Source of the DNA: Schmidtea polychroa
Taxonomy: Eukaryota
NCBI GenBank assembly: GCA_044892525.1
Contig: CM097887.1
Location: forward strand, 18,662,001 to 18,726,000
Length of the DNA: 64,000 nt
Direction of reading: 5' to 3'
Part shown: positions 14,074-61,738 of the stretch, piece after piece
How the letters are laid out: every line of letters starts with the position of its first letter
Numbering within the stretch: position 1 is the stretch's first letter
Translations under genes and position numbers: made by a program
The notes under the pieces: model-generated
What the model saw: the letters and a program-made list of their open reading frames with translations, nothing else
Told to the model about the DNA's origin: nothing
Database searches by the model: none

Positions 14074-14075
<2 letters not shown>

Positions 14076-14870: not shown

Positions 14871-17800
14871 CTTCTAAATATATTATAATGATATTTATTA
14901 CAATTTGCGAACACTATACATTTACAAGTTATCCTTTAAGGATAATATAAAATTATATTTTATAATTCGTAATTTATAAATAAGTTATATTTTATAATCT
15001 GAAATTATAATCTATAACTAAAATTATACTATAATTATTATAGTTGAACATTTATAATTTATATTTTCCAAATAAGTTATATTGTATAATTTGAAATTAT
15101 AGTTGAAAACTAAAATTATACTTTGTGATTAATATTTTATAGGTAAGTTCTTTTATACAATTTGAAATTATAGTTTGAAATCTAAATTACACTTCACAGG
15201 TTACCATTTATATTTTATGAATAAGGTATATTTTATAATTTGTAATTTATATTTTTGAAATTATAGTTGATCATCAACGTTATACTTTATAATTCACCAG
15301 TCATGTTTTAGGAATGAGTTATATTTGATACTTCACGAACTTATGATTTATATTTTTACAGAGGATGCTAAATATAATGTATAATTTATGAGTAGTATAA
15401 ATATATAATTTATATACATAGGTAATACAGCTTGTAATTTGAATTCATAATTTTTAATTTGTAAGTAATGTGAATTTATAGTCTATGCCTTCGTGGGTAA
15501 TTTTAAGATACTGGTTATAATAAGATTTTAATTTATTCATGAAAATATTAAGAATTTACACTTTCGAGTCTTTAAATTTTAGATAATCTCAATCGATAAG
15601 TAAACTCTACCGATACGTATGTTGACTATGTTGTCTCATTACATTAATTGAAAGTTCTTTGGGTTACTTGATTATGAGAAAAGTTATTCAGAAAACTAAT
15701 TTCGACAGCCCTATCGGTAGAAGTTACTTCTAGGAAGTTTAACCGTCTAAATTGAGTGTAACTTATAAACTGTGGTTAAGTTAGGTCTGAGATCTACTCC
15801 GATTATTGTTCTAATGTTATTTGTATTATAGTGATTTTTAATGTCGATTTTGATTGTGTTATGCATTGAAATCGGGAAGAGTTCTTGCTTTCGCGGCCCC
15901 ACTGTGACCACTACGACAAGCCTTACTGCTGTGTTAAGTCAACCTTTTACGGCTGACCTGTAATAAATAAGTAGAGTCAGGCGGAGGGGTCTTATCGACT
16001 CAACTCCATGGCAGAACCATGAAGTGGTGCGACCTTTGAAAGACCTGAACAAAAAAAGGAAGGTATAATACAAATAATGCGTGCTGGTGCCTGCAGTTCT
16101 ATAAATTTAACACATGGCTGAATGTAGGACTGAATAGAGACGCAGGTGCATCAATGCGTCGCTGATCACTCGTACATTCAATAAAAAAATAAAAAGGGTT
16201 AAATTGAAACATAAATAATAATATTATTAAATATCAATAAATGAAATACCAAAGCTTACTATCGAATAAAATTAAAATTTTTCTCAAGAAAATAATTTGG
16301 CATAAAGAGTGTTTTGCGACTAAAATGCGTTGGTATATATACCTATTTTTGTGTGTGCAAGTACGTGTGTATGTATTGATGCATTAAAACAAACTCGAAT
16401 TCTTTTTATTCTAGAATTTTCTATTTTTGATATTTTTAATGGCAATTTTAGTGCCATAATTTTTGTTTTTATTTTTAAATTTTTATTTTCTAATTATTTT
16501 TTGCTAAATTTACCTCCATGATGGATTTGGAACGGTTCCAGAACATTCCATATTAATTTTAGATTAATTTTTATTTTAATGATGTTTTCTTAATTTCTTT
16601 TTTCAAATTTTTATTTTTTCAACTAAGTTATTTACTTTTGTTAACTTCTATTGATCTATGTGGCTTTTATGATGGTTGTCACCATTCTTAGGAAATGTTC
16701 TGGGATTTTTCTAGAATTTTTAATGTTTTACCATCTTTCTAAGCTATTCGAGTCTGTTTTTTTGTAATTTGTGTTTCTTTGCTATTTTTGAGTTAGTTTC
16801 TTGCACTACTTCTTGCATTGATGTCATTTTATTTAATTTCTGTGTTTATATTTTTGTTGTTTTTCCTCTTAATTAATATTGTTTATTTGATGTATTTTTT
16901 TTATATTTAACTGAACTTATTGCTATTTGCGTGCTATGTACCCACGCACCTTAGTCACAAATTAGAGTTTTTGGGTCTAGAAATCAGTTCTAACCCAACA
17001 AAAATAATAAAATCATTCCAGAAAGCCAATTTGACATTGAAACTGTAACAATTACTTTTAATAAAATGTAAACATGGAAAATTTTTTTAATTTTTGAAAA
17101 TAAGGAAATTCTAAATTCCACAAAACATTGGAAAAGATGCTTCAAATCATACATTTTATGAGAGAAAGTCGGAATAATTTTTGGGATTTAGTCTAGCAAG
17201 GCCATAATAAAAATAAAAATCACAAAAATTTAAAGAAAATGCATATGTTATGATGGAAAAGGTAAGGCCAATGATGAGACGAATCATCGAGGGGTCACTA
17301 TAATGAAATATTTGAAGAAAATTGCAAATTAATTACCTAAAGGAAAAGTCGGTTAAATCATTGTCAACAAAATTATTAAATGAGTGCCAAGTGAATTGGG
17401 GAAAACTCGAGATAAAAATGAAGTCGATTTTGATTAAAAATTGCCAAGATCTCCAAATAGACAGTAAATTAGTTTAATACAGAAAACACGAGGAGAGAGG
17501 CAAAATTGATTACAAATTGATTTAATTACAAGAACGATATAAAAAGACGAGACAAGTTAGTAAAATTATCAATTGGTCGAAGACAATTTTAAGAAGTTAA
17601 TTCATAAGGTGATTGATAACGTACCAAAGAAAGATCTATCCTAGCCCGAAAGATAAAAGTGTTTTGAGATGTAAAGATTAAGTGTTAATAAAATTGTGTG
17701 GATATAAAGTTTTGTAAACAATTGTGGTAATTTGTTTATAAGTGAGAATTATGAGTGTAGAGATACTAAACTAATTTGCATAAAGTTTTTGTTGAAAACG

Positions 17801-21313: not shown

Positions 21314-22524
21314 TATTTATTTGCTCGATTAGTCCGGTTTCAAACAGTTCTGGATATAAGTGGAATTAGGACTATGTGAGGTAATAATTTATTATTATAT
21401 GTATTTATTAAAATAAATTATATGTTAAACTCATAATGCATGAATCATTCCATTGAGAAAATAAGTGATCTTGTTTCATGAATCAAAATATAGCAATACA
21501 AAATTACAATCATAACGTGACAATTAGAGACTGGTGGCAATAAAACGGTCAGAACTGCATTTTAACTGTTAAAATATTTGAAAAAATAATCATGGAAAAT
21601 TGTTATAAAAATTCATTAAAATATTTATAAAAAATAAATTTGTTTAAATATATATTCTGATTTCTAGAACTTTCAAAAATTCAAAAATATTTGAATCTGG
21701 TTCTAAAATTATTTATTCATTCTCCTATAAAAATCGATAAAAGGGTATGCGATTCCAGAATTCTGAGAACCAATAGTGAGGGAATCAAGGTAAAATGAAA
21801 AGGAAATGGCAAAGAATCGATAAAAGGTCATTCTTAATTAACAAGTACAAATTGAAATGGTAAAACAAAAACAGATTAGAAAATAAAATGACCTTATCTC
21901 GAAAACTTGGCCGAGATAGGGAATGGACCACCTGGGTTGTGCACTAGGTATCACATAAATTATCCACAATCAAAAATTAACTAAATGTTAGAAAATGTTA
22001 ACCTAATTATAATACGCATGCATAATTATTATAAAGATTTTAATTTGATCAATATTTCAATCAATATTTAAATATTCCAATTAAAAATTTTTATTCTTCA
22101 AAACGCTGCAGTTATACGACTGGTTTTAAATTGAAAATGATTGAAACGGCTGAATGTATTAGAAATGGACGAGCATCTCTAGAAAATGGCCTAAATAAAG
22201 CCATTTTAGATTTTGAAGAAGGAATAAAAATACTTTACAGAAGTGCGAATTTCCTAAAAAGGAGAACAAATTACCTAAATATATTCACCAAAAGCCACTT
22301 TCGACTTTTGCAATATCCACCATAGAAATTCGGTATAAGGTGTTAGATTTAACCAAGGAGTTTTATCATAATTCAATATTTAAAACCTTTTCGCGTTGGT
22401 GCCAGCTTTTCATGAAAAGGTGTTTGTTAAATGATTATAATAAACTATTTAAAGTTATTATAAAAGTTTAATTTTAAAAAATAATGAAAATTTGAAATTT
22501 CCGTGTAAAAATAAAGTGACTAAC

Positions 22525-22929
22525 TGGATCATCTCCAAATCCACAAAGATAAATCGTGCCATCAGGTCGAGGATAAATCTCAGGTGACGAAATTCCACGA
22601 TCGTTTTTAAATTGTAGAAACACACATTCAGCAGGAATGGTTACATTTTTTGGAACTTTCATAACAACACTGTGTGCTCTATGTCCATTTATATTTGGGA
22701 AAGAGTTTTTGGGAAACCATTTCAATGCATTTTTGGACCATGGGCCCATCGCAATTACAACTTTATCAGTTTCAATGTTACTTCCAGACTTCAATTTAAC
22801 AGATTTAATTAAAGTACCGGAATCATTGAATTCTATTCCAACTACTGTGTCATTTAAAATTTGTGTGGCATTATTTGTCATTCTTATAGTTTCTTCCAGA
22901 AACTTTTGACACAATTTTCTTGGGTGAAC
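22525..22929 (-). CDS. FAD-dependent oxidoreductase, exon 3 of 4
   Basis: ttaag|GTTCACCCA (VHPRKL..VIAMGPWS..EIYPRPDGTIYLCG..DDP)|gttagt; phase 0 at both ends. Confidence 0.9.
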
Positions 22930-23107
22930 CTTAAGAGAAATAGATTTTAAAAAATGATTTAAGCCAATTTTGTATTGATTGAAACTATGAAAAATCGAAA
23001 ATAAAGTGTGTTGTGATATATTATGTGATGTACAATGGTAAAATAATAGATATATTTGAGGTGAATAAATACTATAGAATAAATATAGAAAACTAGATAT
23101 AGATATC

Positions 23108-23894
23108 GGAATCCCCCCCAGCAAATGATTGGCCAATTTTTAAAAATTAAATAAAAATTAAAATAATCCAAATAAAGACTACCAATTATTTAATTATAAA
23201 ATAAATTAATGTCGTTAATAATTCATTGATTTAAATTCAAGAGGCCAAATGGATTTAATTGACTTGGAAAATTTTAATGAAGATTTAATTCATTATAATA
23301 CCCAAACAACAGAGCAAACAATAACCTGTTACCAATTCATTGAATTTACCGGAGGATTAATTGTAATTTATGGACCTGATACCCTCAAGAAAAACTTCTG
23401 ACGGAGTGAGGTATCGATGTCCGAGGCCGTGCAGAAAAGAATCTTCAAAAAGAGATGCAGCAACGCTGCTACCGATCATTCAAAAGTACATTCTACCTGG
23501 TACCACTGTAGTTTCGGATTTATGGCGAGCCTATAATTGCCTAGGAGATGAAGGCGGTGAATCATTCAATTAATTTCGTCGATCCTATTACTCACGTAAA
23601 TACAGAGTTGAAAATATGTGGATGAGAGCAAAAAGAAGGAATAAAAAAGAATGCGGTACGGCTTAGGATCTTTTAGCATCTTATTTAAGTGAATTTATGT
23701 GGCGCCAGAGATTGAAAAAAACACCGTTTACTGAAATTATTAACGACATTAATTTATTTTATAATTAAATAATTGGTAGTCTTTATTTGGATTATTTTAA
23801 TTTTTATTTATTTTGAATTATTATTTTTATTTATTATTTATTTTTGCCCTCCAAAAATGGGCCAATAATTTGCTGGGGGGTGGGGGGGAATTCC
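23108..23894 (+). mobile_element. Merlin/ISXO2-like transposon, internally deleted
   Basis: Long imperfect TIRs (over 100 bp). RDAATLLPIIQKYILPGTTVVSDLWRAY, VENMWMRAK and YLSEFMWRQ are DDE_Tnp_IS1595-type motifs. No TSD seen. Confidence 0.8.
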
Positions 23895-27528: not shown

Positions 27529-28830
27529 TGGTGGGTTACATGTATTATATACATTTTACCCTTTCTTGCTGTTTGGAGCGTAACCCAGAATACAATCATG
27601 TATCTTACCGCTTGGTATACCGTGGAGTGATCAACGTTGGTGATGTAGTGGGTGAGTGCTCGCAGAAAGTGAGCGTACTGTAATTGTCGGTCACTCGTTG
27701 GGTCCACGGACTGTCGATAGAAGATTTATGTCCGATTTACTTTGTACCCCTCAGTTAAATTGTTTTCCCAAAATCCACAAACTCGTCAACATTCAAATCA
27801 AGCCGCCATCAAAGCATACTCGTGAAATTAAACATTTGTTGGTTATTGAGTTGGTGATAATTTAAATGTTACTATGACTCCAAACGTGTCTTTATACGAT
27901 CCACAAATAACACTGGACAACAGAAATCTTTATTGATAATCACAAATAAACTTTCACTTTACACTTACAATAAATTCAACACTTTGCTTGGTGACTATAC
28001 AAGTTTCTCTTTATATAGTTTGCTTCTATTGTCGCACTCAAGATAATCAAGTGTTTTTCCACTTTCTTACTCCTGCTTTCCCAGACTGTTCCATTTTTAT
28101 CTCTGGCGGCTTTCAACCTATTTTCACTTTTCCTTTTTTTGTTAAACCGCCTTCTCCCAGCACTTCTGTTATCACTGACAAGCTGTCGAGATAAGAGTAT
28201 TGTTGTTTTTTCTATTTCCCCAATTTCGAAATTCCTTTTTCTTTTTGTACTAATTAATTAGTACTGACCTTGGTTTTTATTTTCATGTTTGATTACTTTT
28301 GTTTCCTTCCTCATTCCTCATTTCTTTTTTCTTCCGCTTTCTTTTTTGAGTTCCCATAGATCGTCTCGTTTGTCATGACGATCTTCCCCCAGGTAATTTT
28401 ATTTATTTATTTATAAATTATTATTTAGGTATCCTCAACACATTTATATTTACACAAGCACTTAGTACACCAGATTTCTATCTACAAAGTCATATTATAA
28501 ATGAGTTGTTTCTTGTTCTTCCCGGTGATCCTGCTCGGCTAGACAGAGTCTCTTCGGTCGACTCTGTCGTCACGACCCAGACTCCTTCGTTTAGATTGAT
28601 CTTGCTGGGTAGGCGGATGGATTTCGGTCAGCTCTGTAGGCATGGGTAGGATGGCTGCTGCAACATGAGCGTCAATGGTCTTCTTATTCTGTTGGGTCTC
28701 CAGGGATCGAACTTGGATAATTGGTGCGCGGATCTCAGTTTTATCCTGTGCTTTTTGCAGTGGAGCTGCTCAATCAGCTTGAACCGTTTCTTCATTTCTC
28801 GAGTTCTCGGCACGCCCCTTGAAATTAATA
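27529..28830 (-). mobile_element. Element M4: truncated, divergent M copy with nested L LTR
   Basis: TGGTGGGTTAC terminus at 27529 and 3' motif (ATCACCAA bulge); decayed ORF2 (CRELE..EMKKR..KRRSLGR) at about 28500-28815. Confidence 0.75.
27837..28440 (-). mobile_element. Family L solo LTR (604 bp)
   Basis: TGTTG...CAACA; TSD CATT/CATT; minus-strand TATA followed by AATAAA (U3-R-U5 order). Confidence 0.9.
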
Positions 28831-31952: not shown

Positions 31953-32354
31953 TTAATGACACGTTTCCATCAGCTTAATAACGGGTATTACATTCATTTC
32001 TGTCGTCAAATTTAACGGCTCATTAAATCTGACAGTGGCAGCAGCATGTATGATAACAGATACATTGTTTAATAATTCATTTAAATCGTTATAATTTAAA
32101 CCAAAATTAACATCAGTTACATTTTCAGCAAATGCTGTAATTTTATTAAGTGCTTTGGGATTTTCTATTCTGACTAAATCTATTCTGACTAAATCGAGAA
32201 ACTCTGATGATAAAAGCTTGGCTAATCTTTCGGCTACTGATGCGCCTTCTGATCTTAATAATTTTTCAATAAATGATTTACCTAATAATCCCGTAGCACC
32301 ACTTATAAAAATTGCTTTATTATCATAAAAATCTATAATGCTTCTAATTACCAT
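31953..32354 (-). pseudogene. Fatty acyl-CoA reductase N-terminal fragment inside intron 2
   Basis: IFISGATGLLGKSFIEKLLRS and IIHAAATVRFNEPL are FAR motifs; internal deletion and premature stop at 133 aa. Confidence 0.8.
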
Positions 32355-32570
32355 CTTTTTGGATATTGATATTTAACAATAAGTCACTAAATAAGAATAT
32401 TTATTTTGAAATCACCAAAAATAGCAATATTTAAACAAATGAATTATTTCAACATAATATAAATGTTTTTTTTTATTTTCAATTTAAGTTTTTTGATATT
32501 TTTAATTCACTACAGTGTGTTTTGTAAAATTCAGTGATTCTGTAATCATGTTCATTATGTATACCCGTTG

Positions 32571-40949: not shown

Positions 40950-41381
40950 ATGACTACATCGTCCAACAATGCCAAGGATCTTCGCCCGTGCTTCTCTTGC
41001 GCGGATAAGAGAGCAGACATCGCTCAGCTTCACTCGTACATCGGGGCGCTAAAGAAGCGAATAGACCTCTATGAAGGCACGTGGTTCTCCCCGCCACAAA
41101 TGAAAGAGGAAAGGACTAAGATCCTCAGACTAGAACACTGTAGGGACAGCCTGCTGGAAGAGAGCCGCTGTCAAAGGCTCACAATAAAGGCACAGTCAGA
41201 AGCCCTCCATAAGGTCTATACGGAGGCAGAACTAGCCAAGCGAGTGCGCGAATTTCCTGTCGTGGATGGTACGAACGTGTTCCCTCTCCACCATCAGTCG
41301 TCTACATCTTCTACCACAAGTTGTCAAGGGCACGGCTCCATCTGCCGCCCATCCCAGCCCCGGTATTGTCGGGATATCTGA
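40950..41381 (+). CDS. Element D coiled-coil ORF, distant homolog of M ORF2
   Basis: LKKRIDLYEGTWFSPPQMKEERTKILRL aligns with LKVKCRELEGTWFSPAEMKKRTTHISRL; preceded by cttctag|ATG. Confidence 0.6.
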   Translation: MTTSSNNAKDLRPCFSCADKRADIAQLHSYIGALKKRIDLYEGTWFSPPQMKEERTKILRLEHCRDSLLEESRCQRLTIKAQSEALHKVYTEAELAKRVREFPVVDGTNVFPLHHQSSTSSTTSCQGHGSICRPSQPRYCRDI

Positions 41382-41676
41382 CCCAATTCTCGTGGCACCT
41401 TTTGTCACCCCGGCGGTAGGAGAAAATCCGCCATCCCGCAAACGCAAGCATCCGACTAGGGCCGAGAAGAATAGAAAACGCCGGGATACAATGAAGGCGC
41501 TCGAAACGTCATTATCAGCGGCGCACTCGAAAATTAAGGAAATATCAACAACTCACTCAATCCCCTCAAAGGAAGTTTTCCGCATTGTTCCAGCCAGCAG
41601 TATCAAATTCATATCCGACTGCCGATTACCTGTTGACATCGACGAGATGATCGCCGAAGGGGACAACTTCGTCTAG
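41266..41676 (+). CDS. Element D overlapping ORF with basic motif; may be the frameshifted C-terminus of the previous ORF
   Basis: PPSRKRKHPTRAEKNRKRR resembles PP..KPKRKRLGRN of M ORF2. Confidence 0.4.
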   Translation: MVRTCSLSTISRLHLLPQVVKGTAPSAAHPSPGIVGISDPILVAPFVTPAVGENPPSRKRKHPTRAEKNRKRRDTMKALETSLSAAHSKIKEISTTHSIPSKEVFRIVPASSIKFISDCRLPVDIDEMIAEGDNFV

Positions 41677-43974
41677 AACGGATTCCTATTGCTCTCGATG
41701 TTAGCTGCGAGCCGTAAACGAACTTGAAGATTTCGTCGAATGTCGTATCCTACTTGTTCATATGCTGTTGATTTAATAATTGTGATGATGTATTGTTTTA
41801 TTTTCGTTTCAGTGTCAATATATTTTTCTGTTTGGTTATTATTTTGTAAAGTCTTCATATATTTGGTTTTGCGAATTAGAGTAAACGAATTAGTGCGGAA
41901 GAATGAAGGAATTAGGCCAACGGTCGTCCTCTGGACTAGGATCGGACCGAGATTTAGGTAGGAATGAGGGTAAGCCCTTCTCAGGCACCATGGAACCCGA
42001 ACCGAGAAGGGGTTAGGAGTAGTCCTAAGGCAGGGGCTCACCTGCTAACCTTTTCCGACCCGTGTGGGCAGCACCAACGTGGAACATCACCACGGGCCCA
42101 CGCGTGGGAATATTTGTCTGATCATTAGGAGTATGCAAGGGAAGTGTGATGAGCGGAATGGCGAGGCTTGTGTTGGGCTAGAACTGACTTCTAGACCCAA
42201 ACTTGAATTGTGACTGAAAGGTGCAGGTACACAACATGCAAAAACAAAAAGTGTAGTTAAATATTAAAATTACATCAAATAAACAATATTAATTAAAGGA
42301 GAAAACAACAAAAGCATAAACACCGAAATTAAATAAAATCATACCAAAAGCAAGAAGTTATGCAAAATCTAACTCAAAATGATCAAATAAACATAGAGTT
42401 ACAAGAAACAAACTCGAATAACTTAAAAGCTGGTAAGAACAGTAAAAAATTCCAGAAAAACCCAGAACATTCCATAAAAATGGCGATGACCATCATAAAA
42501 GTTATCTTAAACAATAAAATTTAGACAAAATCAATAAATTAGTAATAAAAATGAAAATTCGTAAAAAGAAATCCATAAAACACCAATTAAAATAAAAATT
42601 AAATTAAAAGTGAAATAGAATGTTCTGGAACCGTTCCAAATCCATCATGGACGTAAAATTAATGAAAAATAATTAAAGAATAAAAATATAAAAATAAAAA
42701 CAAAAATTATGGCAAAAAAATTGCCATTAAAAATATCGAAATTACAAAATAGAAAGTTCTGGAATAAAAAGAATTCGAGTGTTTTAATGCATCAATACAT
42801 ACACGTGTACAAAATAGGTATATATACTGACACGTTTCAGTCACAATCAATCACTATTTTTATGCCAATTTTTACAGAAAGTATTGCCAACGAAAATAGT
42901 AAGAATTGTTGATTTTTTTTTATTGCATTAATGAAGTACTTTTTAAATTAGTTATCATTTTATTTGTTGATTTTTATTATATTAATGAATTATTTTTTTT
43001 AATTTATGATTATTTTATGTGTTGATTACATTAATGAATTACCTTTTCAATTTATGAGTATTTTATTTGTTGAGTTTATTACATTGGTGAATCACTTTTC
43101 AATTTATTATCAATTATGTAGGGGAATCGAAGTAATTGCATTTTTTGATGTCTCTTGCTTTTGATTCTCTCCAGTGATGTACGAAGGTTCGACGGCGTAC
43201 TGGTATTCCTGCGTCGTCGTTCGGTCCTGCATCTAATTTTTATAGGACATGCATTATCAATATTATAGCAATCTAATATTATATCATCCTTTTTTTGTTC
43301 GGGTCTTTCGGGGGTCGAACTACTTCATGGTCCTGCCATGGAGTTAGGTCGAGGAAACCCTCCGTCTGACTCTTTGTATTTATGTAAGGTCGGCCGTAAA
43401 TGGTTGACTCAACACACAACACTAAGGTTTGTGGAAGTGGTCACAGTGGGGCCATGGAAGCAATATTCTTCCCGACTTTCAGTTAATACACATGTAAAAT
43501 CCACATTCAAAATCACGAACAAAAACTCTACATTAAGGTTCTAAATTGAGTAGAACTCGTACCTAAAATGACACAATCCTGCACTCACACTCATGTAGCT
43601 GGTTGACCCTTAATAGTAATTGTAAGTATACTTAGACAGATGCCGAACTAGAATTTGAAATAAGAATTTACAGTAAAGTAATAAAATGAGAAGGATCGTC
43701 GGCATGTGTATAAGTATAGTTTAATTTAGATAGGCTAATTAAAGTAAATGTAGATACCATAAATGTAATTCTCCAGAAACAAATTACAAATTGATCAGGA
43801 ATCCTACTCTAATATATTTGGGTAAATGATAAATGAACAACACGGATAAATCTTAACTATAAAAATAGACCATAAGCAAGTGTATATAGATCAGAAAATA
43901 TAAATCTAGTTATGTATGTATATATTAACTCTAAATAGGTAACCTAGTAAGGATAATAGATAGATTTTTAACCA

Positions 43975-44520
43975 CAAAGATACAAATGTTATATATAATT
44001 TATAATTATAAATTCCAAATGGTTATGGGAAAATTTTGCTTTATAATAATGAAGGGGAATCTCTTTAGTAATCCCTTTAATCTTAGAAATATAAATGAAT
44101 AAAATGTTATATATAAATTATAATTATAAATTCCCAATAGTTACGGTTAAATTTTACCTTATAAGAATGAAAGAATCTCTTTAATAATCCCTTTAATCTT
44201 AGAAATATAAATGATAAAAATGTTATATATAAATTATAATTAGAAATTCCCAAGGGTTATGGTTAACTTTTACCTTATAAGAATGGAAGAATCTCTTTAA
44301 TAATCGCTTCAGTATTAGAAACATAGATGATAAAATGTTATATATGAGTTATAATTATAAATTCCCAATAGTTATGGTTAAATTTTACTCTATAAAAATG
44401 AAAGAATCTCTTCAATAATCTCTTCAACCTTAAAAGCACAAATGATAAAATTATAAATGTTATCTATAAATTATAATTACAAATCCCCAATGGATATGGT
44501 TAAAAGTTATTTGATATAAA
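43975..44520. repeat. Tandem repeat of about 117 bp, about 4.5 copies, inside M2
   Basis: Recurring AATGTTATATATAAATTATAATTATAAATTCCCAA..GAATCTCTTTAATAATC. Confidence 0.85.
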
Positions 44521-45761
44521 TTATAAATATAATCTATAAATAGGTATAAATACGAATTATAGATAGTTATATGTAATACTTAGCTATAAATATACAAAGT
44601 ACAGATAGCGATAATGACCTGCAACGAAGCATACGACGTTAGAATCAGGGCTATAAAAATCTTGCTAGAGTCATGAATTACAAATTGAAATAATTATATT
44701 CATTATTATAACCATCATCATTAGTGTTATTATTACCATTATTATTATTTGTTATTATTATTACTATTATTACTACTATTGTTATCATGGTATTATTATT
44801 ATTATTATTGTTACAATTACTATTGTTATCTCTATCAGCAATTATTGCTCACCAAAATCAATATTCCAATCGAAATATCGATTTAAGGTTTGCCCCAAGT
44901 CAAATTTAGTATCAACCCTTTAGATCCAATAAGAAGGAGCGAAATCCTTAAAAGTTATTTTTAGTAACCCCCCTCTAGAAAATGTTAACACTATCTAAGT
45001 AAATTGGAGATAGGGGCGGAAGTATATTATCAAAACCTATGAGATACCTATCTAAATCATTAATGAATCGTAATCATATCATTTGTTTACTAGAGAATCA
45101 AACCACTATTACTAAAATACCAAAGAGTGCTTTATTATGATTAATAAATTATAAATACAAAACTACTACGAATTCCAAAAGAGAATCCCTAACGAGGAGT
45201 CGTACGACGATTTCCCAAAGCTAAACTCGTCTATCTCCAGCCAAGAAAAATCATCACCCAGCATTCCTAGAAATGAAAATGTGTGGTAAATAAATAAATT
45301 ACCCGAGCTGCTTAAAAGTCGATTGTACCACTCATGACGAGCACGATCAAGGAGAGGTAAGTAAACGAGAACTAAGCTCGCCTCTAATACCTATCACCCG
45401 ATGTGCCCGAATTCAGTAGTAATGTACTAATTCCCGGGAATTCGACAAAATTTAACATAAAGATTTTTAAATTACCATCTCGTGGTAAATAAATGATAAA
45501 TAGTGAAATAGTAAGTTTAAACAAATATGACAGTGAGGGAATTTTTTTTGTCGAGGTATGGACCTTTCAACATTAATGCTTAATCTAGATAAATGTTTTT
45601 TTTTTATTTTTAATTGATTAAGAATTTTATCGATAAATTAAATAAAAAATTTCATGTTAAAAGTAGTTACATTACTTATAGTAACTTTGGTAGTTAAAGT
45701 ATTATTTATTTTGGGTATATTTTCCACATTGGTTATGATCGTTAATATTCGTACTACAGAT

Positions 45762-46127
45762 ATGTCCCAATCAGATGAGTTCAGCGATGAAGAAAACCAC
45801 CGACGGACGATCACCCGCCTCCGGACCCGTTACATCTGGCACCATATACATCGGTGGGGTCAGGGAAGGGACCTAGATTGTACGGAACGAGTAATCCGGA
45901 CAGGCCCCGAAGTAGATGCCCCGGCGTGGGTGAAGGTGGAACCGGAGAATAACCGGCTGCAGGAGGCCCGAGACCAAGCGGCCTGGGAGGTGGAAGCCGC
46001 TCAGATGCGACTCAGGAAGATCGAGTTACAAATCCGGGCGAAAAGAGAAGGAGTGCCCGTGGAGGAGCTAGAGGAGGCCATAGCATCCCCACGAAAGAGA
46101 GGGAGGCCCCGCAAATGCCGAGGGTGA
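45762..46127 (+). CDS. M2 ORF1, intact 121 aa, C-terminal AT-hook (PRKRGRPRK)
   Basis: ATG follows ctacag|AT; homologous ORFs in M1 and M3. Confidence 0.75.
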   Translation: MSQSDEFSDEENHRRTITRLRTRYIWHHIHRWGQGRDLDCTERVIRTGPEVDAPAWVKVEPENNRLQEARDQAAWEVEAAQMRLRKIELQIRAKREGVPVEELEEAIASPRKRGRPRKCRG

Positions 46128-46333
46128 TCAAGGACCAACTATTGACTTACTATAATTGTGTGTATTGTGACAAATAATCAAAATTGGTTGAGGATCATGT
46201 GTTACTCTTTTTAATAAAATATCTTTTGAATAAATTTCTTATTTAATAGCTAAAGTATCGTTATGCATGATATTGACCTTATTATATTGAACAAGGGGAA
46301 TGCTGCAAGCCAGTAATCGTCGTAATTTATCTA

Positions 46334-46804
46334 ATGATCAAACTATGCGAAAATCTACGAAAGGACAGAGAAGAAGCCCAAAAACAGGCCGAGGAGCTCC
46401 GTATACGAGTGGACAAACTCAAGGGACGGTGCCGTGAACTAGAAAGCACCTGGTTTAGTCCTCAAGATATGAGGAAGAAGTTGACACAGGTCCTCCAATT
46501 GCAGACTCAAAACGCGCAGGATCAGATGGAGATCCGGGCCTTGAAACTCTAACTCCGCGCGTTGGAAACCGAACGCAATGAACAAGCGGTTCACGGAGCC
46601 ACCATAAGTCAAATCCGGCCGTTGTCCGTGGAGTTGGCAGCCATTTACCCTCCGGCCGCGAAAGATAAGCCCAAGAGGAAGCGGCTGGGGAGAAACATTC
46701 GTGAGAAATTAAAGAAGGCCAGACTGGCCGAATACGAAAAGCAAGTGGGCTCCTCGCAAATATCTACGACGGGACTAATCGGCCCCACCAACCGGCCAAG
46801 TTGA
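46334..46804 (+). pseudogene. M2 ORF2, 156 codons with one in-frame TAA at 46550-46552
   Basis: The two listed ORFs are in the same frame and align end to end with M3 ORF2. Confidence 0.8.
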
Positions 46805-47009
46805 ACTTCCATTCCTTGATGTGTACTTCTGTAGTGTGTTTATATATCTAGTAGTATTGAAATGATATTTCCTTTGCTTGTTGTTAAAATAATACATGTT
46901 CTGTAGCGTTAAAAAATGTCTGATATATTTTATGATTGTGTGAAAAGTGAGAGTTTGCACGTAAGGTTGGGAAAACAATTTTGATAAGGGACCTAAGGAA
47001 ATCGGACAC

Positions 47010-47216
47010 AAACCTTCTAACGGTAGTCCGTGAACCCATGGAGTGCTCGACGATTATAGTGCCTCGATGCGCTCACTTTTCGCGAGCACTCAACCCTTGG
47101 TACAGGACCAACGTTGATTACTCAACGGGTACCAAGCGGAACCACTAACGTTGTATTTTGGGTTACGCTGGCAACAGCACTAAAGGACAAAATATTTGAT
47201 CATCAGTAACCCACCA
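47010..47216 (+). ncRNA. Predicted structured 3' domain of the M/D/E family; strand and function not proven
   Basis: Stems 47041-49/47083-91, 47096-103/47129-36 with bulge 47104-11, and 47160-66/47206-12; compensatory changes across six copies. Confidence 0.6.
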
Positions 47217-48021
47217 CTTGGTATGTCTCTAAATCGTGGATAAATAACTTTCTTCCCCACCATACACCAACAGTAGTTAGGAGCTCCCCACAGCAAGCAC
47301 TCCTTCCCGGGGGAGGGGGGTAAAAAGTTTTTTTTTGATTACGCGATTTCTGCAGAGGGCTCCAATGTTTGTTTTCAATACATTTAGATAGGCTCTATAG
47401 AAAAAGGCCAACAAATATGAGATTATCTGAACGGCGGGATTTTAATATCATATTATTATAGAGATTGCGATTAAACCACGATTATGTTAGCAGCGAAACA
47501 TGATGAATTCGATTTGGCTAGAAAATGTTATGTTAAATATATCTTGATAAAGACAACGATAATTTTACATCACAGTTCTATGCAGGCCCTGAAAGAGGGG
47601 TAGGAGTTACGTGGGTCTTTTGACGTGGGCCTCCAAAACATAGCTAGCAACATTGTCTATTGTAAACTATACTTCGTAATTTTATGTAAGGCAACAAAAA
47701 TTTATAACTAGAGGCCTTTATGATTGATGCAATCCCACTTTCGACTTGGCTTAGATGTTTTTTCCTTGTATAATTAACTGCCGACACAAATTTGATGTTA
47801 TGAATTTTACATTTAGAACTCAAAATCTATTTCACTCAGAAAAATTAAGAATATCATAACAAAATACAATATAAAAACTTGTAATATTTTGTAAATGAAT
47901 CAAATTCCTCGTGATCAGTTTAATTTAATTATTGTTAAGATTAATTTTAAACTGTAAGTAATAATAAATTATTTAAATAAATTTAGAATATTTTATATTA
48001 TTTTATTTGTATAAAATCAAC

Positions 48022-48446: not shown

Positions 48447-51040
48447 TTTAAAAATTTCATTAAATCAACTTTATTTCTAAAATTTGAGATTTCAGCGACT
48501 TTGAGTAGTAAAACAATCACAAATTAAAATTGAATTTTCAAAAATTAAGTGCAACTTTTTAATATTATAAATAATGTTTTCAAAATTAATAAAATTTAAT
48601 AATAAATAACCAATTTTATTAACAATCGCGATGAGACTATTGTGGTTTTAAGTTAAAGACAAATCCCGATTTTTCAATGATTTTTATCTCAATACTATTA
48701 ATTTGGCAATAATTCATCAATGATATAAAAATAAGTGTATAAGACTAGAGAAAAGAGTCATGACAAGTTTATTTGGTAAGTCTCTGTTGCTGGTTTTGGT
48801 TGCCTTGTTCCTAAGTAACGCTAAGTTTACCATTAGATTTCACCTAGTTTATCATCCCAGTAATGCCAAACACATTATTTATAGCATAACTAATATTGTC
48901 ACATGTTACGTTGAAAATTTAATCTATTTGTGAAATCTGCATAAAAATGATCGCCTCTATGGAACTGCTTATGCTCAACTTATGATTCCAAATTATTTCT
49001 ACTGAGTTTTCTTTTTGCTTGATGGTAAGTTCAGGTGAGGACCTCATTACTATAGCTTTCCAAACATCGGCAACTACGAACTTTTCACACATTAGACGAT
49101 CAGTGTAACCCCTGTATCTGAAATTTTTACTAAGTATACATACAACGTAAAGATGACAATCCTCGGAAGCTGCTAAGTGTGGCACAATTTTGGATCATTA
49201 GCAGCTGTTAGAAAGATTTACGTCCATTCAAGTATCAATGTAATTAATGTTTTAAAATTTCTTCGTATTTTGACCTCTTACAGAATTTAAAATTATTTTT
49301 GTAAAGATCTTGATCTCAAAGTTTGCTGTATAAGAACATAAATGAAATCCGATATTGCTCCTAATCTAATTATAGTAGGCACTAGTGATTGGTTACCGCC
49401 ATTTATATGTTCTTTTCATGAGTTAAAGATTTCCTATTTTAACTATATGATCAATCTTTGATGGGTAAACCGCAAGTCACTTGTTTTATTCCAGCTCATA
49501 CAAACATGCTTTCTCTGCTCAGATTCAGTATCTTTTTGACTTTTTGTCCTTTCCAGTAAATTTATGATTGTTCTTCCCATTCGTTTTTACCTATTCTACC
49601 ATGAAGGAAAAATCAAACAAACCAGTAACGCCTATTACTTTGCATGGCACTCTCTTAATACATTCTATGATATTCTTAAATAATATTATAAGTACCAGAC
49701 GTATTTAGCTTGCAATCTTATGAATTCTAAATCGTATCAATTTCTAATAATAGAAGACTTTAAATATAATAATATTTATTTAAAAAAAAAGAATTACTGT
49801 ATGATCAAAGTCGAAAATAAGACAATTTTTTTAAAGTAGTTGATAATAATACATATACACCTTCCTTCGGTTGTCCAAATATATCCATATATATTTTCTC
49901 CAAAGGCTCAGAGGTTGTAATTGTTTTAGTTTCTTCTTTTGTTCCTTTTATATATTGTATGTATGTTTCACATGTTTTCTTTATAATATGCCTGCATTCA
50001 TTTATGCAGTTTCTTTTTGAAATTTTATTTTTATATCAAAACTGCTTAGATTATTTTTCAACGTCTGAAACTGTACTTTAATTGTGCTATTTTTGGTCAA
50101 CATAATAGTAATTTTTTTAGTTTGTTTGCTTTAAGACTCTTTTATCATGTAAGTCAGCGCTTCTCTACCTTTTTTGCTTTGAGTACCCCTTGGAAGTTCG
50201 TTATCCTAAATTGTACCCCTTATATTATAAAAAAAATTAAAATATTAATTCATTAAATATTAAATATTAAAATATTAATATATTAATATTTTGTGTATAA
50301 ATAGTGAGCGATAAAACAATTTTTAAGTCCAATATTTGCCACCTCTTTGAAACTAAATTGAGGCGAGAGTTATACTTTTAACATCCGCCATTACTAATAA
50401 TTTACCACGAGTTGGGAATCGCTGATATAAGTAATAGTTGAACCTTTTACAAAAATAATATATTGTTAACATCTTTTTTAGTGATGCATTATCCTCTTTC
50501 ATCACTTCTCATTGCACGTGACCCATACGTAATGACATGTTTGAGTACCACTTCATCTTTCTGCGATAATATTTGTGGAAAGTTGTGAGCTCAATGCGCG
50601 TCTGTGTGCGCGTTGTATTTTGTGATGGGTTTGTGTGCACAGACGCGAGCAATGTCATTTTTGTGTTGGGTTGTTAGTTTATCTCGCGTCTGTATGCGCT
50701 TTTCTTTTCTTTGTTTTTGGCTTGTGTGCGCACACAGACGCGAGCAAGAGGTAGGACAATTTTATTAATTAGGTTTTTGTGAGGTTGTAATTTGTTTATT
50801 TTAGATTTAGATTTTATCGATTTTTGAATTTATGATGAGTTATGTTTCGAGTTTAATGGAGTCGAATTATTTGGGTTTTTAATGATTTTCGGATAAAAGA
50901 TGGCTGATTTTAATGAAGAAATGGAAATGGGAAATACTACCAACGAAATTGATGGTTCCTTTTTTATGACCCCAAGAGATCCTGATAATGTTAATGGTGT
51001 TTCTGGCCAACTAATATTAAATTTATTTGGTGGATGGATT

Positions 51041-51363
51041 TCCGTTGGTATTCGAGGCAATAATTGTGATGTAGTAGCTACACAAAGAAAGGTTCCAGAT
51101 CAAATGATTGAGAAGAGTTCAGCTACAAGATTGTTTAATATTACTGAAAGTCCTGGAGGTGTCATGACTGGTATGATCCCTGATTATCGATCTCAAGTAT
51201 GTCGTGCACAAATGGAAGCAGTTCGATTTAGATATAAACATGGATATGAAATGCCTTGTGACATAATATTGCGGATATTAAGCAGCTTTCTACCCAATCA
51301 ACTGAGACGCGACCATTAGGTTGTTCAATGATGGCATTATCTTATGGTATTGAAATGGACAAA
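51041..51363 (+). pseudogene. PSMA6: Proteasome subunit alpha-6 internal fragment
   Basis: SVGIRG..TQRKVPD..LFNITE..VMTGMIPDYRSQV.RA..EA..RYKHGYEMPCD, then after a frameshift ADIKQLSTQSTETRPLGCSM. Confidence 0.85.
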
Positions 51364-52172
51364 TTGTTATTATTCAAAAATAAAATTATTATTCGTTATC
51401 GTGAATTTAAACAATTTGGGAATGTGAATACTGTTGCTACTATCTTTACTGGTTTCATTTCATCGAATTCTTTGACACATATATCTGCTTAAACTCTTTT
51501 TTCATTATTGTTTTACAAACGCTTTCTAATTCTCATGTCTTCTATGCATAATATTTGATGAATCACTGGTGATAATAATTACATATCCCAAAAACTTCTC
51601 ATCAAGTTCTTCACGCACTTTGGGTTTTGGAAGTATTGAATATCTTCAATATTATTTTTGGTCAGTTTGTATTTATTATGTATTCTAAAAACTTAATTTT
51701 ACTTTTAAAGATCTGATACTTTTTTGAGCTAATTTTTAGTTTTGTTATTTCAATACGCTTTTGAATAATTTCCAAACATTATATGGTGTTTTTCAATAAA
51801 TTTTTGTAAAGATTAGTGGTGGGTTACTGATGACCAAATATTTTGCTCTTTAGTGCTGTTACCAGCGTAACCCAGCATGCAACATTATTTTCCACTTGGT
51901 ACCCGTTGAGTAATCAACGTTGGTGCTGTACCAAGGGGTTGAGTACTCGCAAAAAGTGAGCGCGCTAAGAGCGCTATAATTGTCGAGCACTCCATGGGTT
52001 CACGGACGGCCGATAGAAGGCATGTGTCCGATTTATTTCGGTCCCTTATCGAGATTGCTTTCCCAAACTCTTTTCTGTCAACCGTCCTGCTCTGGACAAT
52101 CACAAATTTAATCACATACCCATCAGACAATGAAATTATTTATTAAAACACTACAATATCACAATGTCGGTT

Positions 52173-52645
52173 TTACCCAGGAGGGATCGCACTCTCAAAC
52201 ATTCCTCCGGATCGTGGAGTGGTTTCAGGCTCTTTCGATTTTTCCTGCTCGGCCAGCCAGGCCCTTTTCAATTTCTCTCGGGTATTACGCCCTAACCGTT
52301 TACGTTTCGGCTTGCTCGTCTGGGCCGGGGGGTATATCTGGGCCAGCTCCATGGGAAGTGGACGAATCTGTTCTCGGAGAGTGTCCTGGATGAACCTTTC
52401 GTTCAATCTACTCTCGAGCGTGCGCACTTGTAACTTCAGTGCTCGTATTTCGAGTTGGTCCTGCTCCGCCTGGGTCTGGAGTCGCGAGATGTGTGTTGTT
52501 CGTTTCTTCATCTCAGCCGGACTGAACCAAGTACCTTCGAGCTCTCGGCACTTGACTTTGAGCTTCTCGACCCGACTTCGGAGGTCTTCGGCTTGTTGCT
52601 GGGCTTGTTCGCGGTCCTTGCGTTGGTTTTCGAGTAACTTGTACA
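52173..52645 (-). CDS. M3 ORF2, intact, about 157 aa coiled-coil protein with TWFSP and basic motifs
   Basis: Open frame after ttttccttcag|TG; no ATG at the homologous start. Confidence 0.7.
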
Positions 52646-52946
52646 CTGAAGGAAAACAATAATAAAATTTCATCGCTCGCTTCCATGTGCGTAAAGGTGA
52701 TTCGATTAATTGCATAAAATTAATAGATGAAGGATGAGAAGGGTCACCTCAAACATGAATACACCCATAAGCCATAAAGTCCAAAATGTAATAGCAGAAA
52801 AACAATTTATTATACTACGAAGATACATGTTGAACGATATTGTCAAAAAGTTAATGAACAAAAATTGTAATGAAGTCAAACGCAAACACCATATCATTGA
52901 ATCAAATTTGTTAGATAGTTTTATTCCAGTTGCCACTGCTGGCGGC

Positions 52947-53263
52947 TTAGGCAGGATTCTTACGGGGCCTCCCTCGTTTTCGTGGAGGAGCATCTGCCTC
53001 TTCTAGCTCTTCGAGGGTTACTCCCTCTGCTTCGGCTCTGAGCTGAAGCTCGAGTCTCTTCAGTCGCCTCTGGGCCTCGTCTACTTCGCCGGCCGCTCGA
53101 TCGCGGGCTTCTCGCAACACATTGTTGGTCGGCTCTACTTTCACCCACCCCGGGGCATCGGGCTCGGGGCCACTTCGGATGACCGGACCATAATTATCTG
53201 GGTCCGGAGCCGCGTGATCCTCTGCCTGTACTCCGCTTCGTCGGGTTCACTTGTTTGAGCCAT
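52947..53263 (-). pseudogene. M3 ORF1, frameshifted by internal deletion
   Basis: MAQTSEPDEAEYRQRITRLRT / VIRSGPEPDAPGWVKVEP..PPRKRGRPRK. Confidence 0.8.
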
Positions 53264-56200
53264 TCTGTTAATAAATAAGGATGGTTAACGATAATGGTCT
53301 TTTCCCTTTTTTTAAAAATTTCATCTTTCTCATCAATCTGCTAAGACGTAAAACAGTGGTTCGAACGAATAGTTACCCTCTGATGGTAATAGTGTTCCGT
53401 GTCGTAAATTAGATGACCAATTTACAGCCAAAATGGATGGTCATTCACTTATCATCACCCTATAGCCTCACCCTGGAAACATCGAAAGGGATCTTCCTAA
53501 TAAATACTTTATTACTAATTCAGCCAGTGACAAAAATTTCCTTTGACCTTGAACTTTATTTTTGCTCGTGGTCGTCTTACCTAAATCGCTCAGATCTATT
53601 AGTTTAACTTTTATTGAAAAATTAAAACATGAATCTAGTTGCTTTATTAAGCTAACATTATTATGTAATTATTTACATCATGGGGATCATTTATTTGCAT
53701 TTGTATTTAAGCTGAATTATTTAATTCAGCTTATATTTTCACTATAATTAGCCCTAGAGAAAGATTTCGCTGGCGAACGGTTTTATTGTCGAACTGTGTT
53801 CCAATACCCTTCGTCGGTGAAGTTAATGATTCATTAGAAATAATAAAGACATATTCTATAACTTAATGACAATACATATCTACAAATTATAGTTTTGAAT
53901 TTTGGGTTGCACTTCAGGATTCAGAGATCATACATATTACCAATTTTTATATCAGGGTAATGTACGTTACTTTCAGAACTGTAGTTATTCAGAAATAATG
54001 AATTCCGTTTAAAATAATCAAGCATTTTCATTTTACTATGTACGCTTGTCGGAACTTCCTTACGAGGATTATTACGTTTACTTCTGAAAAACTTTTATAG
54101 CAACATTAAGATTTATATATATCAATGAGGTCCGACAAACGTACAGGTATAACTGAGCTTTTTAATGAGGTTCAACCGACTATATGTGTTCAATTTGGGT
54201 CTGAGATCTACTCAATTAGAGTCCTAGTGTTTAGTAGTGTGTGAAATTTTTAATGTTGATTTTAATTGTGTGCTGCATTCAAACTCGGGAAGAATGCTTG
54301 CTTACACGGCCCCACTGTGACCGCTACGACAAGCCCTACTGTAGTGTTGTAGTCGAAACATACCACTGTCGACCGATAATAAATAGTTAGAGCCATAGCC
54401 GAGGGGTTTTATCGACACAACTCCATGGTTGAACCATGAAGTGGACGACCTCCGATGACCGAACAAAAAAGATATATAATAAAAATAATGCATGTCTGCA
54501 TGTGGTTTTAGATTTTTAAAGTCTGGTTGAATGCAAGGCTGATCAGAGGTGCATACAATCGGCACGACTCTAATCACTCTTACATTCAACGGTAAAAAAA
54601 CGAAAAAGTTTCAAAAGGAAATATGGATTTGATAACAACTAAATGATAAAACATATTATAATGTAAAACATATTATAACATATCATATAAAACATATCAT
54701 AAAAACATATTATAATGTAAATAAAGTACTCCTTACTATTAAGATTTTTCCAAAGAATTTTCACAAAATCAAAAAAAATGAACTTGGCATAAAGTGATTA
54801 ATTATGACCGAAACGTGTCGGTATATATACCTATTTTGTACACGTGTATGTATTGATGCATTAAAACAAATTCTTTTTATTCCAGAATTTTCTATTTTGC
54901 GATTTTGCATTTTTAATGGCAATTTTTGTGCCATAATTTTTGTTTTTATTTTTAAATTTTTATTTTTTAATTATTTTTTCGTTAATTTGACGTCCATGAT
55001 GGATTTGGAACGGTTCCAGAACATTCCATGTTAATTTTTATTTTATTTTTATTTTAACTGATGTTTTATGAATTTCTTTTTAAGATTTTTTATTTTTAAT
55101 ACTAATTTATTTATTTTCTCTAACTTTTGTTGTTCTAGATGGCTTTTGTGATGGTCTTCGCCATTTTTATGGAATGTTCTGGGTTTTTCTGGAATTTTTT
55201 ACTGTTTTTTTACCGTTTTTTTAAGTTATTCGAGTCTGTTTTTTGTAACTCCGTGTTTATTTGGTTATTTTTGAGTTCTATTTTTGCATCACTTCTTGCT
55301 TTTGTATAATTTTATTTAATTTCTGTGTTTATGTTTTTGTTGTTTTCTCCTTTAATTAATATTGTTTATTTGGTGTAGTTTTCAATATTTAGCTATACTT
55401 TTTGCTTTTTGCATGTTGTGTACCTACACATTTCAGTCATAATTAGAAGTTTGGGTCTAGAAATAAGTTCCAGCCCAACATTAGTATATCATCTAGATAT
55501 AACAGTTCTTTATCTTTCCATAATAATCTTAATATTTTTCTCCTTAATTCTTAAAATGTATCCGTAGGTGCTACAATACCAAATGGCATTCGATTGAAAC
55601 TAAATTGTCATTCTTTCGTTGAGAATGGTTTTTTCTATGTGAGTATTTTTCCACTTTGTCTTAGTAATAGGCGTTACCTAAGTTCATCACACTTAAATAT
55701 TTATCCCAATGTGAATTGTCTAATATTTCTACTACATTTGACATCGAGGTGCCTGTCCTTACTTATCCGTCTTATTTATTTATCTAAAAGTATACAATAG
55801 TTTCAAGGTGAGTTACACTTCCTAATAATTCCGTTGCTTTTTATGTTTTTCATATATTTTCCTTCAAGATTTATTGACTTTATTGTTATTGTTTCTCCTT
55901 CCGTTACGATTTCATGCTTGGTCAGGTACTTAAATTCGATATCGCATTTATCACTCATAAAAACCTATTTATAAGATTCTAAAATTTATTGAAACCCCTT
56001 ATTAGTTCCAATAGAATTACATTTGATTTCTTTGTTCAATTTAAATTAGTAGTTCTGTCTCTGTGTTAATATATGATATGATAATTTTTACTATAATGAA
56101 CCTTATCTTCAATGTTATATCTCCTATTTTAGAATAGACTTCTATTTTATCTAGAGTTTCAAACATGCTGTTGGTTGGGCATCTAAAAAGCTAATTATTT

Positions 56201-60025: not shown

Positions 60026-60068
60026 GTATTTTTTTTAAATACAAATTCATAAATAATATTTACTTAAG

Positions 60069-61482
60069 TTGAATGATACTAATGGACAAATAGTAGATAT
60101 GAATGGTGAACCTTATATCATATATAACAACGATGACGGATTACATTATATTATTGATGCAAATGCTAGTGAAGGAAATTCAGACAACAATAATAACTTA
60201 GATAGCAATAATAAGTCTGTAACCTATCGATGTCCATCATGTACCTTATCTTATCAAAATGCAAATGCATTTACTAAGCATATGCGCGAGAAGCACTTTG
60301 TTAAAGTTTTCACTTGTCGACAATGTGAAGATTTTTTTGAAAACCTCAGTTTATTATTTCTACATGCCAGAAGAACGCATGTCGATCCTAAAAAGCCCAG
60401 GAAGAATCCCTCTAATTTTAAATTTCATTGTCCGGATTGTGATTATATGACCAACAATGGTGGTACAATGGAACATCACAGGCGTGCTCATTCAGGTGTT
60501 AAACCCTATAAATGTGATATATGTTTTAAAATGTTTGCTCAAAAAGCCAATATGAAAACTCATAAAAATAGACATATTCACAAAGATAGAATCTTCCGGT
60601 GTGAAACATGCAGTAAATCTTTTAATTCCCACGATATCTATTTAGCTCATTTGAGAACTCGAGAACACGAACTTCAAGAACATTTTCAAATTATGATGAC
60701 TTCTAAGATTCGAATTCGTTGTATGGGATGTAATGAAGTGTTCGATAATTACTTTTATGTCAATAAACACTCAAGATCATGTGAGATTCTCAAGAGCCTG
60801 GGCATAAAATTTTGGTGTATTCAATGCGAAGTTGGATTTAGTAATTCTACGGAATTGAAACATCATTTAAAAGGACACGGAGGTAATCAAATGATAATAT
60901 GTCCCGTCTGTGGTGAAAAGGGTTTCCCTGGATTTAATCAGCTCAATCATCACATAACTCGTGCTCACGCGCTCAAAGTCAACCGGCGGAATGTTTGCCG
61001 GTATTGTGAAATGCCATTTGAAACCAAAGATCTTTTGGATGATCATATTGAAGATATGCACCATTCGGAAAAAAATGCTCGTCAATCTAGAGGAGCTGCG
61101 GGTCGTTTAAGATGTCGATATGAGAATTGCGATTTTACTTCGAACTCAGTTATGTTAATGGATCGTCATCACGATCAACATGTTAATAACTCATTACCGA
61201 GTCAGAAAGAAATCAAAACTAGAGGAAGGAAACGTAAACTTCCACCGATAGAAATGCTGGATTTTGAAAAACACGAGCTGATTGACGCGGAAATCGAGCA
61301 TGTTAACTCGACTATTGATCACAATGAGATTCTACGTGATGAGCAAGTTTTGAAATCAACCGTTATTAAATCGGAAATGGTTGAACCAACATTCAAGAAA
61401 GTGAAGCAAGCTCCAATGAAAAGTGTGGAAAGTTTCGATGATATGGATTTAGTCGATTTGCAGAGATTAGCAACAGTGTTCG
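60069..61482 (+). CDS. C2H2 zinc-finger protein, exon 2
   Basis: About ten CxxC..HxxxH fingers and an SGVKPY linker; donor TTCG|gtaaat. Confidence 0.92.
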
Positions 61483-61738
61483 GTAAATTTCTATATATTT
61501 TAAGGTAAAGGTTCTGATTGGAAGGATAAATGTATCTATTAATAGCATTGATTTTCATTGATCGAAATTTTACAAATCACATTTTAATAACAAAGAACTA
61601 ATGTTAGTAATACTCACATTCAAATATTTTCATTTTTAAATATCATTGAAAATAATGCTCATTAATGGAAAATAAAATCTATCTAATTAAACATTTGCCG
61701 ATTTATCTGTGATAATCATTACAAATTTATGTTTATAG

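Follow-up and report, generated by a model that had tools for sequence, protein, structure and literature searches.

A covarying bulged hairpin near the 3' ends of Burro-type LTRs in Schmidtea polychroa and its possible contact with primer tRNA-Pro(UGG)

Burro-type LTRs in the window

We analyzed a stretch of 64,000 nucleotides of Schmidtea polychroa (assembly GCA_044892525.1, contig CM097887.1, positions 18,662,001 to 18,726,000, forward strand), referred to below as the window. All six copies of the motif described here were located near the 3' end of Burro-type LTRs, comprising four complete solo LTRs, one interrupted LTR and one fragment:

1801-3881, + strand: E solo LTR, from a non-autonomous family; its flanks agree at 3/4 bases
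10998-17000, - strand: M1 solo LTR, with a 4-bp duplication
27529-27775, - strand: M4 fragment, a 3' piece of an M-type LTR
42171-47216, + strand: M2 solo LTR, with TG...CA ends, inserted in the 3' end of LTR D
47221-47272, + strand: 3' end of LTR D, separated from the rest of it by M2 and matching the 3' ends of uninterrupted D copies
51817-55480, - strand: M3 solo LTR, with a 4-bp duplication

The sequence around M2 matched other places in the genome at 95-99%. The M2 unit (5.05 kb) was common to other copies at 97-98%, its ends were sharp, and it was flanked by a 4-bp target duplication (42167-42170 and 47217-47220). Paired M2-like units flanked longer elements, one of which (about 35 kb) encoded a Gag with a CCHC knuckle, MATH, a mononegavirus-type fusion domain, protease, RT, RNase H, integrase, ankyrin, TRAF and BIR. 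The hallmarks of Ty3/gypsy elements were found, namely long direct repeats with TG...CA ends, 4-bp duplications (M1, M2 and M3), a primer-binding site (PBS) and the order PR-RT-RH-IN. The Burro anatomy was also found: a length of more than 30 kb, an env-like domain between gag and pol, and MATH, BIR and ankyrin domains. Judged from domain content and description rather than from reference sequences, the host is Burro-type by anatomy. The planarian element Burro (GYPSM1) is 30-35 kb long and has 5-kb LTRs and the same Gag-MATH-fusion-pol-ankyrin-BIR set; the part of its account cited here covers the proteins, without LTR RNA structure, primer identity or LTR-encoded ORFs (PMC6431247).

The E-type elements were 12-18 kb long. 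A Gag match was present in 2/5 of those tested, and matches to RT, IN, env or ORF-B in 0/5; they are therefore non-autonomous, yet the motif was retained in them, as would be expected of a cis signal.

A covarying bulged hairpin

The initial annotation had treated 47041-47136 as one stem-bulge-stem motif. This interval covers two domains, and the bulged hairpin proper, called domain III here, occupies 47096-47136 only. The copies in the window were as follows:

3726-3768, + strand: E domain III, perfect copy (pattern scan)
11075-11115, - strand: M1 domain III, imperfect copy with one broken pair
about 27611-27648, - strand: M4 domain III, imperfect copy with the lower stem partly deleted
42061-42104, + strand: D domain III, perfect copy in LTR D (pattern scan and covariance model)
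47096-47136, + strand: M2 domain III, with lower stem, 8-nt bulge, upper stem and a single G opposite (47128)
47104-47111, + strand: M2 bulge, with CCA at 47108-47110 and then A
51895-51935, - strand: M3 domain III, perfect copy (pattern scan)

A scan of both window strands for a paired stem, A-N-N-A-C-C-A-A and a second paired stem gave exactly four perfect copies. The six copies proposed earlier were borne out, M1 and M4 with mismatches or a deletion. The six scored 87-131 bits with a covariance model and the rest of the window scored at most 13 bits; the model was built from 24 copies that included these six, so their matching is by construction.

The data showed that the bulged-hairpin motif is real and that its stems covary strongly, as had been claimed from stems that differ while pairing is kept. 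In the alignment of 24 copies, both sides had changed in 13/15 pairs of domain III and 92% of cells were paired, which was equalled by 0/500 shuffles; slid-partner controls paired in only 25-45% of cells. A further 42 distinct copies, fitted to the covariance model, were paired at 93%, and their covariation score was reached by 0/500 shuffles, while the double-change pair count, one of five measures, was matched by 40/500. Seven disjoint pairs of natural subfamily representatives were also compared, which lessened the effect of relatedness among copies. Compensatory double changes numbered 11, where the null averaged 1.4 and reached 11 in 0/5000; of the single changes, 8 kept the pair and 10 broke it, and 1 double change left the pair broken.

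The conservation of the bulge was determined with 129 distinct full-length copies (partial matches below 125 nt were excluded beforehand), which formed 34 clusters, 14 of them with at least two members. Bulge positions 1, 5, 7 and 8 were fixed in 14/14 clusters, and position 6 in 13/14, the exception being a two-member cluster with a tie. Position 4 was A in 13/14 clusters and U in 8/11 copies of the remaining one, and positions 2 and 3 were variable. The G opposite the bulge was the commonest letter in 14/14 clusters. The earlier statement that six of eight bulge bases are invariant thus holds for positions 1 and 5-8, which are essentially fixed, but not for position 4, which differs in one subfamily.

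Exact patterns found 3,894 non-M and 1,934 M-type copies in the genome, at least 5,800 in all, with 0 in the controls; as exact patterns only were counted, these numbers are lower bounds. The motif was spread over 14 subfamily clusters, non-autonomous elements among them.

Neighbouring domains and functional strand

Domain III is the last of two well-supported domains, and a further one, domain I, is weaker:

47003-47030, + strand: domain I (weaker), a hairpin with a conserved CCUUCUA in or near the loop
47041-47091, + strand: domain II, a long stem with an inner helix; its 1x3 internal loop (U / CAC) is conserved

The inner helix of domain II begins AGU/GCU and includes a U-G pair. In 88 distinct non-M contexts, 587/616 cells of the outer stem were paired in register, compared with 45-59% when slid; for the inner helix the slid control did not discriminate, since 252/264 cells paired at +1. 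The spacer between domains II and III was 12 nt in all 100 listed of the 3,894 pattern matches (12-18 nt allowed). In single-copy folds, domains I and II recurred upstream of domain III, with domain I folding in M copies and inconsistently across subfamilies. Among the upstream motifs described as shared, CCTTCT and GCTCAC were kept, but GAACCC was absent from several subfamilies.

Strand evidence had been regarded as mixed, and it is now settled for the sense strand by domain II, where G-U outnumbered A-C by 77:7 and 88:1. This excess argues that the sense (genomic RNA) strand is the functional one. The ratio in domain III was only 115:67, because all copies were counted, decayed ones included.

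The comparison with Rfam that had been suggested for the motif matched no known family: the 64-kb window had no gathering match, 10 LTR-end loci gave a single chance-level match (E 4.6), and no T-box match was obtained in either set. A known self-cleaving ribozyme was also considered and rejected, as Rfam gave no ribozyme match and a loose hammerhead-core pattern occurred in just 2/30 regions.

The primer-binding site

The 18-nt PBS after the 5' LTR is complementary to the 3' 18 nt of the genome's own tRNA-Pro(TGG) gene, and it occurred at 1,054 exact sites in the genome (control, 0). The spacer from the terminal CA of the LTR to the PBS was 7-8 nt in all subfamilies, longer than the usual 2-3 nt, which implies an unusual end processing by integrase. 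The bulge was located 112-172 nt upstream of the PBS in all 40 distinct copies (50 PBS-anchored loci), and a U preceded the PBS in 20/20 sites, some of which were found by a pattern requiring that U. By its position, the motif-bearing LTR end would be U5 in the 5' leader of genomic RNA.

The 18th PBS base tells the isoacceptors apart, as A59 is present in TGG genes and U59 in CGG genes. Reverse transcription stops at m1A58 of the primer tRNA, as stated in part of PMC11251516, and the last PBS base therefore records base 59 of the tRNA that was used. TGG was matched by 1,054 sites; the 19 of 1,073 (1.8%) that differed were all CGG-type and were scattered over subfamilies, so that 98% of PBS sites record the UGG isoacceptor. 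By pattern counts, non-TGG Pro genes came to 616, compared with 2,166 Pro genes; of the 616, the first 100 were all CGG, with no AGG among those listed. Of the 19 CGG-type copies, 18 could be parsed, and all had CCAA, without a matching bulge change. The discriminator of the primer tRNA-Pro is C, and its end is C-CCA rather than A-CCA.

No family with another primer tRNA was found in this genome. The 16 sites with a D/E LTR end and a non-G fourth base consisted of 7 point-mutated Pro sites, 2 motif-bearing LTRs with unrelated sequence after TGG, and 7 unrelated sites. The tRNA-Pro genes themselves lie in very large tandem arrays, with a 475-bp unit for TGG and a 442-bp unit for CGG.

ORFs encoded in the LTRs

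The following ORFs were located in the LTRs:

40950-41676, + strand: ORF-B of LTR D, split over two frames in the D copy
45762-46127, + strand: ORF-A exon in the M2 LTR, with a basic motif at its end and no Pfam family
46330-46807 (approximate), + strand: ORF-B homologue in the M2 LTR, broken by a stop, with a coiled coil and an Arg/Lys-rich helix
52173-52643, - strand: ORF-B exon of M3

ORF-A was found in the M type only, among the loci tested, and its terminal basic motif is one that we take to be AT-hook-like. Homologues of ORF-B were present upstream of the motif in six subfamilies (M, D, F, G, I and J). They have in common a coiled coil and an Arg/Lys-rich helix, to which the non-M types add an acidic-hydrophobic tail, and identity between the main groups was only 21-37%. 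The predicted structure (pTM 0.33) consisted of helices only. Searches of Pfam, PDB and the Atlas gave no link to a known RNA-binding regulator, and no relatives were found outside this genome.

AG acceptor-like sites occur directly upstream of the LTR ORFs, and this context suggests that the ORFs may be spliced accessory genes. The conserved GCTCAC(CTG) (window 42040-42047 and 3700-3709) reads like a 5' splice site on the opposite strand, and in the non-M types a GTAAG directly before CCTTCT resembles a sense 5' splice site, both by comparison with the 5' splice-site consensus. Across 30 LTR ends the poly(A) hexamer had no conserved position, and contigs from presumed RNA runs yielded no strand, start, end or splice joint of LTR transcripts.

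Possible roles of the motif

We tentatively favour a docking model, in which the bulge would display CCA plus A to the anticodon loop of primer tRNA-Pro(UGG) and so aid primer choice and placement; we regard this as possible and short of probable. The CCAA of the sense-strand bulge would pair with U33-G36 of tRNA-Pro(UGG), an exact complementarity of 4 nt that occurs nowhere else in this tRNA. The primer being tRNA-Pro(UGG), the sense-strand CCA is its cognate codon, and, counted from the bulge's 3' end, it takes up bases 2-4, the register by which T-box specifiers are assigned (10.1101/2020.06.17.157016, in part). A precedent is the contact of the A-rich HIV-1 loop with the anticodon of tRNA-Lys3 (parts of PMC2691828 and PMC3185550). 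The complementarity, the UGG isoacceptor bias, the specifier register and this precedent are among the grounds on which we prefer anticodon docking. Docking would help to select and position the primer tRNA for reverse transcription, with the bulge presumably open for tRNA pairing, and domains I and II may help to hold the tRNA or Gag/RT. G37 of tRNA-Pro is methylated (PMC7577736, in part), and the bulge base that faces G37 in the docking model is the one altered in one subfamily.

Several observations stand against docking. Only four base pairs are available, and the CC of the bulge can pair with the invariant GG opposite, a register that RNAalifold chose. The mean unpaired probability was 0.43-0.45, and the open and CC-GG registers were within about 2 kcal/mol of each other in 13/14 representatives. 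Complementarity over a longer stretch of the tRNA's free part was not beyond shuffles (duplex -40.5 kcal/mol, versus -39.6 for shuffled tRNA). Every tRNA ends in CCA, which also complements the beginning of the PBS; by itself the match is therefore not Pro-specific, and the UGG bias may stem from tRNA abundance or from the 18th pair alone. Bulge A1, the lone opposite G and domains I-II are left unexplained by anticodon docking. An extended form of the model, which we consider rather doubtful, is that Burro-type elements evolved a T-box-like multi-domain leader in which the codon would read the anticodon of tRNA-Pro(UGG), select among near-identical isoacceptors and pass the 3' end to the PBS. 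The eukaryotic convergence on bacterial specifier-loop logic that this would represent is equally doubtful.

Comparison with known systems gave likenesses and differences. HIV-1's A-rich U5 loop is likewise a short unpaired stretch upstream of the PBS that complements the primer anticodon loop, but it lies much closer to its PBS and, in the parts of PMC2691828 and PMC3185550 cited, its role is disputed between isolates; here an 8x1 internal bulge forms part of a larger covarying fold and is 112-172 nt away from the PBS, and the anticodon contact is predicted. In contrast to HIV-1, no conserved PAS was present; GAACCC, which matches the T-arm, has disappeared from several subfamilies. In the T-box specifier loop, too, bases 2-4, counted from the bulge's 3' end, are the cognate codon (10.1101/2020.06.17.157016, in part), a sequence match only. 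However, the host is a eukaryotic retroelement, there is no antiterminator/terminator and no Rfam T-box, the tRNA 3' end is occupied by the PBS, and a UGGN antiterminator-type bulge is present on the disfavoured strand only, where discriminator C does not pair. The T-box likeness would be an analogy at most. Hepadnavirus epsilon, as described in part of PMC8903280, shares a lower stem, a central bulge, an upper stem, a lone unpaired base opposite and two conformations, but our element has a tRNA PBS (1,054 exact sites) and an LTR-type RT instead of a protein-primed RT, and the bulge therefore need not template a protein-linked primer. Ty1 and Ty3, also LTR retrotransposons, have extended or bipartite primer contacts that reach past the PBS; in the part of PMC5371799 cited these are longer helices with the T and D arms, and none was above shuffle level here.

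The initial annotation had proposed a selected structure serving priming, packaging or protein binding, and the covariation and the nearby PBS agree with this. Of such roles, a recognition signal for Gag (nucleocapsid) or polymerase, acting in packaging or initiation like retroviral psi or hepadnaviral epsilon, is somewhat unlikely in our estimate. The binding surface would then be made up of the lone G, both flanking C-G pairs and those bulge bases that are fixed, and this would be compatible with docking. An asymmetric loop between near-invariant C-G pairs fits such a signal, as do A1 and the opposite G, both fixed and not accounted for by anticodon pairing, and a second fixed loop (domain II) at a fixed 12-nt spacing in all 100 listed of 3,894 matches. 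The motif is moreover kept in non-autonomous elements, Gag carries a CCHC knuckle, and the two near-equal folds recall the rearrangement needed by epsilon (PMC8903280, in part). Such a signal does not, however, account for the fixed bases being, in the specifier register, the primer's cognate codon. If the motif lies in U5, it would be present in every LTR-started transcript, and it would discriminate poorly between genomic and spliced RNA unless a splice donor precedes it.

It is improbable that the motif is a TAR/RRE/RxRE-like response element for the basic ORF-B, governing transcription or export. ORF-B homologues lie a few hundred bases upstream in six subfamilies, their coiled coil and Arg/Lys-rich helix give a likeness that we assume to be to Rev/Tat, and E elements could use the protein in trans; but ORF-B is only 21-37% identical between main groups whereas the bulge is fixed, neither Pfam, PDB nor the Atlas ties it to a known RNA-binding regulator, and its basic motif may serve nuclear localisation and nothing more. 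We give still less credence to an intramolecular role, either as a CC-GG alternative register or switch, or by pairing of CCAA with either the UUGG at the beginning of the PBS or the start of U3. The near-equal registers (RNAalifold choice, unpaired probability and energies) would suit it, as would the U before the PBS (20/20 sites, in some of which the pattern required it) and an LTR that begins with the complement of CCAAC(A). Against this, A1, A7 and A8 are unaccounted for, predicted bulge-PBS pairing averages 0.03 in pseudoknot-free folding, and U3 pairing, itself without covariation, must open the covarying upper stem. Highly improbable is the earlier suggestion that the antisense strand functions, as RNA or minus strong-stop DNA, with a UGGN bulge binding the tRNA 3' end like a T-box antiterminator. 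The bulge does read UUGGU there, the M2 hairpin folds as well as in sense (-17.8 versus -17.3), and whole-motif MFE prefers sense in only 55/96 copies. However, the G-U:A-C ratios of domains II and III given above all favour sense, D and E do not refold into the motif on the antisense strand (z -0.08 and 0.13), the primer ends C-CCA with discriminator C, and there is neither terminator logic nor an Rfam T-box match. Anticodon docking remains the reading that we tentatively prefer.

Relatives, novelty and significance

An RH-IN search gave 363 related proteins, the best of which were 44-56% identical. No relatives of the element were found in viral contigs, and 80 metagenome loci (the best 80 of 374) gave no significant covariance-model match, the closest loci stopping short of the LTR; this is therefore no sign that the motif is absent there. 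The host element is known and cis-acting leader structures are a known kind, and the motif itself is apparently undescribed: no description was found in Rfam or in the literature searched, a coverage that lies outside the original Burro account, its supplements and Repbase.

Covariation-supported RNA structures have rarely been defined in animal gypsy elements, and thousands of natural variants are available here. The motif offers a way into the question of how an env-bearing retroelement of 30 kb chooses its primer or packages its RNA. How one tRNA is chosen among isoacceptors whose 3' ends are almost alike is described as an open question for HTLV-1 in part of PMC11251516. If the anticodon contact is true, it bears on isoacceptor choice by retroelements and on T-box-like reading outside bacteria; if it is false, the motif is still a cis signal that is apparently undescribed, and it is well suited as a marker in the annotation of Burro-type LTRs.

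Other features of the LTRs and the window

The M-type LTR end (window 47147-47216) has a 7-bp stem followed by ACCA and on paper looks like a tRNA acceptor end; this feature was absent from the D and E types. A tRNA-like 3' end of a retroplasmid-type element, Penelope/retrozyme and HEART/epsilon protein priming were each dropped, as the ACCA end is the LTR end and is followed by the PBS. The 3' LTR junctions of the E and M families that were seen had, by eye, no adjacent purine run. They share a short hairpin and a GC-rich stretch in place of a polypurine run, and plus-strand priming is left unexplained by them.

A tandem repeat of about 116 bp is present in 4-5 copies in the M LTR (window 43940-44520), and its number varies between copies. 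D-type copies are spaced regularly at 33.2 kb in G000:C1:145062829-145162775, which suggests either whole elements arrayed in tandem or a segmental repeat. ORFs between two D-type repeats resemble what we take to be a Polinton/Maverick insert (ATPase-, integrase- and capsid-like by eye). The window also contains host gene pieces at 22474-23139, 31953-32372, 50897-51319 and 60057-61508, whose identities are FAD oxidoreductase, fatty acyl-CoA reductase-like, proteasome subunit and C2H2 zinc-finger protein.
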